From Candidatus Latescibacterota bacterium (GTDB lineage: Bacteria > Latescibacterota > UBA2968 > GCA-2709665), in assembly GCA_965205485.1 (NCBI GenBank), contig OZ242180.1:1728001-1792000 (forward strand): a stretch of 64,000 nt of DNA, read 5' to 3'. The position numbers were made by a program, and so were the translations under genes. Position 1 is the stretch's first letter. Each line of letters opens with the position of its first letter. Of the stretch, positions 1,203-2,398 are shown in pieces. The notes beneath the pieces were generated by a model. The model saw only the letters and a list, made by a program, of their open reading frames with translations. It searched no databases and had not been told where the DNA came from.

Positions 1203-1606
1203 AGCTGTCAGCTATCAGCTATCAGCCGTCAGCCAGAACCTTGACAGGATACCGATGTCATTCGGCGCTGGGTCTCGAATATGGTCGAAGCTAATGAGAG
1301 GCAAGCAGATCAGTCCGGAGGTAGCGGAAATCGAGATTACGACCGCGACCTGCGTCAAAATGCATGACATAAGCCGATTTTAATGCTGAGAATTAACTGC
1401 TATTGGCTGATAGCTGGTTTTGATTCGATCATCACAAAAACTGGAGAGGATTGCAGGAGATGACGGCTACATGCGATGGGACAATCGCTCCTCCTCAAAC
1501 GGAAAACCTGCGGTTTGGTTTTCCATATGATATAGGACTCTTCAAATTTGATGTGATCTTGTTTTTGGCTGAGAGCTGAAAGCTGACGGCTGATAGCTAA
1601 CGGCTG
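1203..1606. repeat. ~400-bp heptamer-armed unit, copy 1
   Basis: Starts GCTGTCA-GCTATCA-GCTATCA-GCCGTCA-GC and ends with the complementary GCTGAGA-GCTGAAA-GCTGACG-GCTGATA-GC; aligns along its length with 2008-2398. Confidence 0.85.
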
Positions 1607-1630
1607 GATTTTCCACCGCCAGGGGACGCA

Positions 1631-2002
1631 ATGCAGGATTACAGGAAATTACAGGTCTGGAATAACGCGCATAACCTTGTTTTGACCATCTATAGGAAAT
1701 CCCGGGATTTTCCAAAGGAAGAACAGTATGGCCTTAAATCCCAACTGAGACGATCCGCGATTTCAATCCCTTCAAATGTCGCTGAAGGCTGTGGCAGAAA
1801 GGGAGATGCTGAATTCGGTAGATTCTTGAGCTTCGCAATGGGTTCTGCAAGCGAACTTGAATACCAATGTCATCTAGCGCATGATCTTGGATATTGGCAA
1901 AGCGACCTGGATTACGAACACGTCAGTCAGGAAATCACGGAGATCAAGAGAATGCTCTCAGCTTTGATGTCAAGAATTGAAATGGATCGAAAGTCAAGCT
2001 GA
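1631..2002 (+). CDS. Four helix bundle protein (23S rRNA IVP / bAvd-like family)
   Basis: Motifs MQDYRKLQVW, FPKEEQYGLKSQLRRSAISIPSNVAEGCGR, AMGSASELEYQ. Confidence 0.95.
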   Translation: MQDYRKLQVWNNAHNLVLTIYRKSRDFPKEEQYGLKSQLRRSAISIPSNVAEGCGRKGDAEFGRFLSFAMGSASELEYQCHLAHDLGYWQSDLDYEHVSQEITEIKRMLSALMSRIEMDRKSS

Positions 2003-2007
2003 TTTTG

Positions 2008-2398
2008 AGCTCTCAGCGGTCAGCAATCAGCCTAAACCCGGATAGAAAACCTATGTCATTTGGCGCAAGGACTCCGACACAGTCAAATCGACCGATCGGA
2101 AAAAAGGGTAAGTCAGCAAGTTCCAGAAAACATCAGGTCGCTCGCGGGTATCGTCGCACGGCATGATGTGAAATTGCTATTAGCTTAAAGCTGAGGGCTA
2201 ATGATTGATAGCTGGTTTTTGAATTTGTCATCGTACAGCCTGGAAAGGACTTCCGGAGATGACGGCTTCATGCGGTGGTATAATCGCTTTTCCTCCATCG
2301 AAAGACCATTGAGATGATTTCCCGTTTGACATGAGATTCTTCAAGGATAGATGTGAACGTGTCTTTAGCTGAGAGCTGACGGCTGATAGCTGACAGCT
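2008..2398. repeat. ~390-bp heptamer-armed unit, copy 2 (diverged direct repeat of 1203-1606)
   Basis: Same arm layout; shared blocks ATGTCATT-GGCGC, TGATAGCTGGTTTT, GGAGATGACGGCT-CATGCG-TGG, GCTGAGAGCTGA. Confidence 0.85.

Follow-up and report, generated by a model that had tools for sequence, protein, structure and literature searches.

An intact four-helix-bundle gene among probable relics of itself in an ABC exporter operon

Introduction

In the window studied here (the whole 64,000-nucleotide stretch that was analysed), a small gene flanked by two self-complementary units of ~400 bp lies inside an ABC exporter operon, which raises the question of what the units are and how the insert came to be there. 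An earlier note on this DNA had suggested that the units may be an RNA element recognised by the encoded protein. We favour, with moderate confidence, a different reading: the insert would be an intact four-helix-bundle gene among four decayed fragments of itself, set off by heptamer arms; the array would have been built by local duplication, deletion and gene conversion, and the slot swapped by recombination; and the protein would bind the hairpins of its own repeat, aiding persistence of that repeat genome-wide. Because relatives carry this cassette or a rival one at the same position in the operon, it is likely to be a swappable selfish cassette.

Results

Layout of the insert

The unit–gene–unit arrangement between the exporter adaptor and ATPase genes, as described in the earlier note, is confirmed by the open reading frames, by the arms, and by a public DNA run that backs the assembly, with one contig spanning 1081-2633 at 2 differences (Table 1). 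The list of open reading frames places the 123-residue frame at 1631-2002, between the adaptor end at 1182 and the ATPase start at 2421; the insert therefore sits between protein-coding genes, and has no rRNA match. Six heptamer arms occur in the order forward, reverse, reverse, gene, forward, reverse, reverse. The arms can pair, as had been proposed, with the outermost ones 86% complementary across 35 nt and stems predicted. The (GCTATCA)n arms are present where the earlier note put them, although the heptamer is degenerate and reads AGCNNTC. The two units are indeed colinear yet diverged, the segment 1 copies being 56% identical (0 of 300 shuffles as good) and the segment 2 copies 72% identical across 126 nt. 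The words said to begin and end segment 1 also exist, but ATGTCAT (1255-1261 and 2053-2059) and ATGACAT/ATGATGT (1364-1370 and 2163-2169) are set in from the segment ends by ~20 and 14 nt; ATGTCAT occurs within the intact gene as well (1867-1873).

Table 1. Features of the insert and its flanks, in window coordinates
Feature	Position	Strand	Evidence
ABC-exporter periplasmic adaptor gene, host left flank	1..1182	+	TIGR01730 above cut-off; ORF; 5' end beyond window
Type B (AGA[CG]G[GT]N) stub, two heptamers, 14 bp	1183..1196	+	Absent from type-A alleles G006 and G004; matches how type-B alleles G014 and G010 begin
Forward heptamer arm 1, AGCNNTC x4	1203..1233	+	
Relic 1a: probable decayed 3' ~140 bp of the four-helix-bundle gene, joined to forward arm	1234..1384	+	z 7.9, 0/300 shuffles; nhmmer E 6.6e-6 genome-wide
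Internal reverse arm 1, degenerate	~1385..1415	+	
Relic 2a: putative gene copy with internal deletion (start-codon region, nt ~77-118, last ~12 codons)	1416..1567	+	8-copy profile matches 5/5 genes, E 1.6e-8 to 2.9e-4; alone z 2.2
Reverse arm preceding intact gene	1568..1606	+	
Intact four-helix-bundle gene, TIGR02436/PF05635, 123 aa	1631..2002	+	Purine-rich leader 1621-1626; dN/dS 0.05-0.14
Forward heptamer arm 2	2008..2032	+	
Relic 1b: probable decayed 3' part of gene	2033..2182	+	z 9.2, 0/300 shuffles; tblastn 34% over 50 aa
Internal reverse arm 2, degenerate	~2183..2213	+	
Relic 2b: putative gene copy with internal deletion	2214..2366	+	72% to relic 2a; profile match to genes; alone z 1.3-3.0
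Outermost reverse arm, then T run and ATPase ribosome site AGGAG (2409-2413)	2367..2398	+	
ABC-exporter ATPase gene, host right flank	2421..3110	+	PF00005

Origin of the units

In both units, segment 1 can be aligned with the 3'-terminal ~140 bp of the gene (z 7.9 in unit 1 and 9.2 in unit 2; 0 of 300 shuffles), and a DNA profile of five orthologous genes recovers 12 segment-1 copies in 6 genomes, all from profile position 251-257. The copies are colinear with the gene, have a common junction and in most cases are gapped at one place. Since they begin at an arm-like word of the gene, in its G-S-A-S-E codons, a single ancestral deletion at microhomology is suggested, which would have joined the TCAGC of an arm to that similar word. 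Segment 2 gave no pairwise match to the gene. A profile of 8 segment-2 copies matches the 5' part of five of five genes (E 1.6e-8 to 2.9e-4) and the 3' end in one of the five (E 0.044); the window's own segment-2 copies alone match weakly, being equalled by 2-25 of 200 shuffles, and the case for deriving segment 2 from the gene is weaker than that for segment 1. Relics and genes are 50-64% identical, the units are 44-98% alike among themselves, and unit number at the slot varies between genomes. Judged from these alignments, the ~400-bp units are very probably deletion relics of the central TIGR02436/PF05635 gene, that is, worn gene pieces in place of the RNA element suggested earlier.

The inner segments match nowhere else in the genome, and the relics stay tandem at the parent slot. 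Enrichment of units beside four-helix-bundle genes, which the earlier note had set as a check, was not found: none of the 25 distant homologues has relic units beside it, after three flagged loci had been dropped as artefacts of 100-base N runs. Within the slot, slippage or unequal exchange at the arms would have raised the number of units, and gene conversion is seen in G006, where unit 1b shifts from b-like to a-like sites. The locus is mostly a fossil record rather than a new RNA machine, and what look like conserved non-coding RNAs beside PF05635 genes can turn out to be remnants of those genes, which may mislead RNA-motif searches.

A ~140-bp copy of a gene's 3' end is also what the template of a diversity-generating retroelement (DGR) would look like, and PF05635 is reported to be homologous to the DGR protein Avd in the accessible text of PMC10053308. 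The units would then be the template repeat, or a dedicated RNA partner, of an Avd-like protein, with the 3' end of the gene as variable region. However, mismatches are not limited to adenine: they fall at all four bases with no strong substitution bias (rates by relic base of 0.35 for A, 0.37 for C, 0.54 for G and 0.46 for T). Moreover, the reverse transcriptase family PF00078 was not found in this genome, and the units are absent beside the 25 distant homologues, vary in number and similarity, and have no Rfam match below E 0.36. A dedicated RNA partner of this kind is largely refuted and, in our estimation, highly improbable; a DGR itself was rejected on the base pattern and on the PF00078 search.

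RNA folding and the operon transcript

A different role for RNA is conceivable, in which the insert acts as an mRNA intervening sequence (IVS): long stems formed by the arms in the operon transcript would be substrates of RNase III, whose cuts would tune expression of the adaptor versus the ATPase, and the host would keep the hairpin, with either of two cassette families (see below) serving. Unit 1 does fold better than its shuffles (z -4.8), whereas unit 2 is equalled by 8 of 100. With the arms fixed and the inner segments shuffled, 5, 34, 15 and 14 of 40 shuffles fold as well, and in these models no folding signal comes from the inner segments over and above that of the arms. Retention of heptamer arms in 15 of 15 alleles of the genus is in keeping with such a role, but the arm duplexes are mismatched about every 7 bp, and 18-81 bp suffices between the two genes in four orthologous operons. 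An RNase III gene is present in the genome, and this enzyme cuts the heptamer-bearing 23S IVS of Coxiella, which contains a gene of the same family (PMC4990558, accessible text); in an operon, cutting without re-ligation would break up the message. Selection on the protein would also be left unexplained. We consider this account improbable, although it is compatible with a gene among its own relics, and both could hold.

The proposed pairing of ATGTCAT with ATGACAT/ATGATGT survives in part. The 7-bp helix is kept in 9 aligned copies with 96.8% pairing (3 G007 copies, without the helix, were left out of the alignment), but it is equalled by 148 of 500 shuffles; one two-sided change occurs in the 9 copies, and both strands derive from gene sequence. 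In a region picked after viewing, 10 of 14 helix positions are invariant in 5 lineages versus 21 of 88 in the interior. As helix columns are more conserved than the interior, weak selection on stem extension is possible, and both the pairing and the conservation lean towards the transcript-cutting account. The covariation sought in the earlier note did not materialise, the consensus covariation term being -0.13 kcal/mol, and an Rfam search of the units returned nothing under E 0.36. The units were therefore rejected as a new structured RNA on four grounds: (i) no Rfam match, (ii) the small covariation term, (iii) the failed helix control, and (iv) arms-fixed shuffles that fold equally.

The gene and its own heptamer

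The 123-residue protein matches TIGR02436 (E 1.3e-38, 131.6 bits, cut-off 24) and PF05635 (E 7.5e-38, 129.4 bits, cut-off 33.8), in agreement with the earlier assignment to an inserted gene-plus-arms element of the 23S-IVS protein family. It also matches PDB 2GSC, of the PF05635 fold (E 2e-25), and reaches only 21 bits against the Avd model NF033474 (cut-off 80). The intact gene evolves under purifying selection (dN/dS 0.05-0.14 over 10 pairs). Only 2 PF05635 genes occur in the genome, and the type-A gene, as we term the family in this window, was found in five copies among 132 genomes of the class, one per genome and all five at this slot. No mobilising enzyme was identified in this genome (97% complete): the insert gene is PF05635 alone, and neither the HUH/Y1 transposase PF01797 nor a PF00078 reverse transcriptase was found there.

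Forward arm, gene and reverse arm recur in this order in the best 8 matches outside the genus, seven with AGCNNTC and one with the variant AGCNNTT; these come from several phyla, the closest relatives being Latescibacterota or Gemmatimonadota. The basic element is accordingly forward arm–gene–reverse arm. Across 25 loci from 31 related genomes, each protein subfamily has its own heptamer in inverted arms, and the association of this subfamily with AGCNNTC extends from these loci to the distant homologues. In the latter the reverse arm runs over the last codons of the gene, and gene and arm are thereby inherited together.

Such overlap would be expected if the insert were passive debris, that is, if the gene had a host function unrelated to the repeats, the arms were slippage-prone simple repeats, and the link between subfamily and heptamer were co-inheritance. 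The lack of a strong substitution bias in the relics would suit this too. It accounts poorly, however, for the inverted arms with a private heptamer in each subfamily at the 25 loci, and for the substitution of one family for another at a single slot described below.

The second PF05635 gene of the genome (G000:C1:2548478-2551771; L002:400-1900) has GAAGGAA-type arms, with three related ~110-bp modules nearby. The modules are not gene relics, the relic search there giving z of at most 1.7.

Two cassette families at one operon slot

The orthologous gap was inspected in all 14 further members of the genus and in 8 more distant genomes (20 loci from 31 genomes). Within the 15 genus genomes the gap ranges from 226 to 3,894 bp and holds 6 type A and 9 type B alleles, the type B protein being ~42% identical to type A and its arms reading AGA[CG]G[GT]N. 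Five type A alleles have the gene and the sixth, in G001, is a single gene-less relic unit of 226 bp; the type B alleles comprise four with the gene, four without, and that of G010, with extra genes. Heptamer arms are kept in all 15 irrespective of family or gene state, and type-B relics with internal deletions appear in 8 of the 9 type B alleles. Outside the genus, G021 and G023 have type-A relics in the slot, G026 a 34-bp arm stub, G015, G016 and G018 gaps of 18-81 bp, and G019 a heptamer array plus a longer insert, while G029 has no adjoining adaptor. As to the empty site that the earlier note called for, gaps of 18-81 bp were found in four more distant orthologous operons, and no empty site in any of the 15 genus genomes; the short sites occur solely at 51-75% adaptor identity, and no target-site duplication is definable.

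Monophyly of type A is rejected on the adaptor (p-AU 1e-49), ATPase (8e-5) and rpoB (1e-10) trees, on which 4, 6 and 4 type changes are counted, with 3, 4 and 2 forced by starred branches. The two families occupy the slot in a pattern other than one clade. Because type-A alleles have the same derived relic in common, repeated exchange of the whole slot is a simpler explanation than independent insertion, and we consider exchange between relatives likely. Homologous recombination within the exporter genes on either side would carry alleles between genomes, and the left junction in this genome would be one of microhomology; the 14-bp type-B stub there is likely the scar of an earlier allele.

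Several individual slots deserve description. The largest array, that of G008 (L049, 2,744 bp), has six or more type-B relics and near-identical tandem blocks, and a decayed duplicate of the ATPase start inside it indicates local duplication. In G010 (L062), the type-B arms enclose a small ORF and a permease-like gene of higher AT content, and cargo can thus be accommodated in the slot. The last reverse arm of G004 is broken by an insert at which the assembly also breaks (L050 = G004:C62, first ~60 bases, reverse strand; L061 = G004:C22, last ~76 bases). By eye its ends resemble those of a group II intron; an Rfam search of L050 and L061 gave nothing, and two RF00029 matches lie elsewhere in G004. 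The G019 insert (L019), which follows a long heptamer array, has an ORF that we take, again by eye, to resemble an IS110-type transposase. Finally, the adaptor of this operon is 75% identical to those of another family's genomes and only 51-58% to those of other genera of its own family (L066 and L067 versus L063-L065), a hint that the operon itself moved.

The heptamer across the genome

The genome has 88 arrays of at least 3 AGCNNTC-type heptamers, compared to ~1 per 2 Mb per strand in an order-4 Markov simulation, and 110 by weight matrix. Most dispersed arrays are single arms at the edges of long intergenic regions, joined to other hairpin repeats; a reverse arm is also present in only 5 of 89 array-bearing intergenic regions, and the inverted doublet is not the rule. 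Dispersed type-A arms are joined to CCTCTCYCCC-type hairpins in 37 of the 89 regions and to GTAGGGG-type in 25. The arrays were rejected as truncated gene ends: 0 of 105 flanks align to the gene (random control 2 of 100), and the common part is only ~10 nt beside the arm. Using a home-made gene caller, we found 30 of the 105 intergenic arrays within 40 nt after a gene's 3' end, and 21 after a 5' end, on the outer side, which gives no clear polarity to transcription. Promoter and terminator scans yielded 2 versus 1.5 expected and 3 versus 1.2 expected.

Does the protein drive this repeat? The six genomes with A alleles have 104-193 pattern matches and the nine others 15-76 (Mann-Whitney p 0.0004), the locus itself supplying only 2-7 per genome. 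Comparing gene present with gene absent (5 versus 10 genomes) gives p 0.0013, but this comprises 2 independent pairs and has counter-examples; on well-supported rpoB branches only 2 independent contrasts exist, both in the expected direction (p 0.5). The pattern is found in 7 of 8 distant genomes with the type-A subfamily (3-687 matches), the eighth having a stop in its gene, and in 1 of 16 with other protein matches. Repeat-rich genomes in which the gene was not found count against such a drive and favour the passive-debris account: G001 has 108 matches despite its gene-less allele, and G057, G063, G056, G023 and G021 have 30-311 type-A matches (311 in G057, an assembly of 590 contigs, and 58 in G063). 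The passive-debris account is opposed by dispersed copies, far from the gene, that follow the subfamily across phyla, and overall we regard it as quite improbable. For type B, gene presence is not associated with heptamer number (p 0.34, loose pattern), and in G019, with its 1,099 B-like matches, no TIGR02436 match was found.

Returning to a gene that supports its own repeat, we hold protein-driven spread to be possible, at somewhat less than even chances. As for mechanism, a pentamer might recognise the arms as RNA or single-stranded DNA and recruit a host enzyme, by analogy a non-catalytic counterpart of RAYT; this we place only a little short of even. Unlikely, but worth stating, is the generalisation that S23p/IVP proteins are sequence-specific, non-catalytic drivers of heptamer-repeat populations, in which one domesticated gene per repeat family would maintain ~100 dispersed arrays, rival pairs would displace each other at operon slots, and tandem relic arrays would be left as fossils or as decoy binding sites.

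Comparison with known systems

The comparisons made here draw on the accessible text of the papers cited. The closest counterpart in content is the S23p 23S rRNA IVS of Coxiella burnetii and Leptospira (PMC4990558), which likewise has PF05635, an ORF within inverted arms, variable heptamers and ORF deletions. In C. burnetii the heptamers vary in number, RNase III cuts the IVS, and one strain has a 176-bp ORF deletion; the ORF is reported to be decaying and probably unexpressed (PMC4990558). Unlike that IVS, the insert lies between protein genes, has a gene under purifying selection, forms a tandem relic array and shares its slot between two families. REPIN-RAYT systems (bioRxiv 10.1101/2021.07.10.451892) have in common with it a single-copy gene at a fixed extragenic site flanked by dispersed-repeat members, and their genomes without the gene have fewer repeats, which the A-allele contrast parallels (2 independent contrasts, with counter-examples). 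In contrast to RAYT, the protein is not a HUH/Y1 transposase, the repeats are tandem heptamers, mostly single arms, rather than palindromic REPs, and the slot is probably exchanged between lineages.

Avd of DGRs (PMC10053308, bioRxiv 10.1101/2023.10.23.563531) is a related pentameric four-helix barrel that binds an RNA stem-loop, which by analogy would be the sole precedent for hairpin binding by the insert protein. Unlike in Avd systems, the protein reaches 21 versus 80 bits, a reverse transcriptase was not found in the genome, and variation is not adenine-specific. The TAACTGA heptamers of Beggiatoaceae are a further parallel: their intergenic arrays, numbering from dozens to hundreds, have 2-6 copies each, lie near gene ends and have no known spreading mechanism (PMC4679880). 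The present arrays differ in being tied to a gene subfamily; the accessible main text of PMC4679880 contains neither 'helix bundle' nor 'intervening sequence'.

Overall, the insert resembles an S23p-type IVS moved into an operon, and RAYT/REPIN in its population behaviour, and it fails a defining test of each, as well as of DGRs. MITE-like internal-deletion derivatives are gene-less, keep their ends and lose the middle. The relics resemble such gene-less copies; here, however, a transposase and a target duplication were not found, and the relics are tandem at the parent slot. Near-identical copies at several sites, as for an IS or MITE, were not found, the inner segments matching this locus alone.

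A literature search, mainly of open-access main texts, found no description of heptamer-armed PF05635 cassettes in operons; PMC5524665 and PMC8700078, in their accessible text, merely list such genes. The contribution of this locus lies in an intact gene surrounded by its own probable relics in tandem, in the alternation of two families at a single slot, and in an association with repeat number within the genus. It also amounts to a natural experiment, in that one slot can be compared across 15 related genomes, between two subfamilies that differ in heptamer and between alleles with and without the gene, which makes a test of cognate versus non-cognate binding direct.

Neither PF05635 proteins nor intergenic heptamer arrays, common as both are, have been explained. 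Elsewhere in the window, other heptamer arrays of at least 3 families lie at 9269-9321, 9875-10018, 12024-12185, 17329-17356, 39473-39519, 42160-42192 and 63234-63262, and tandem repeats with periods of 72 bp and 44/89 bp at 18946-19125 and 32475-32649.
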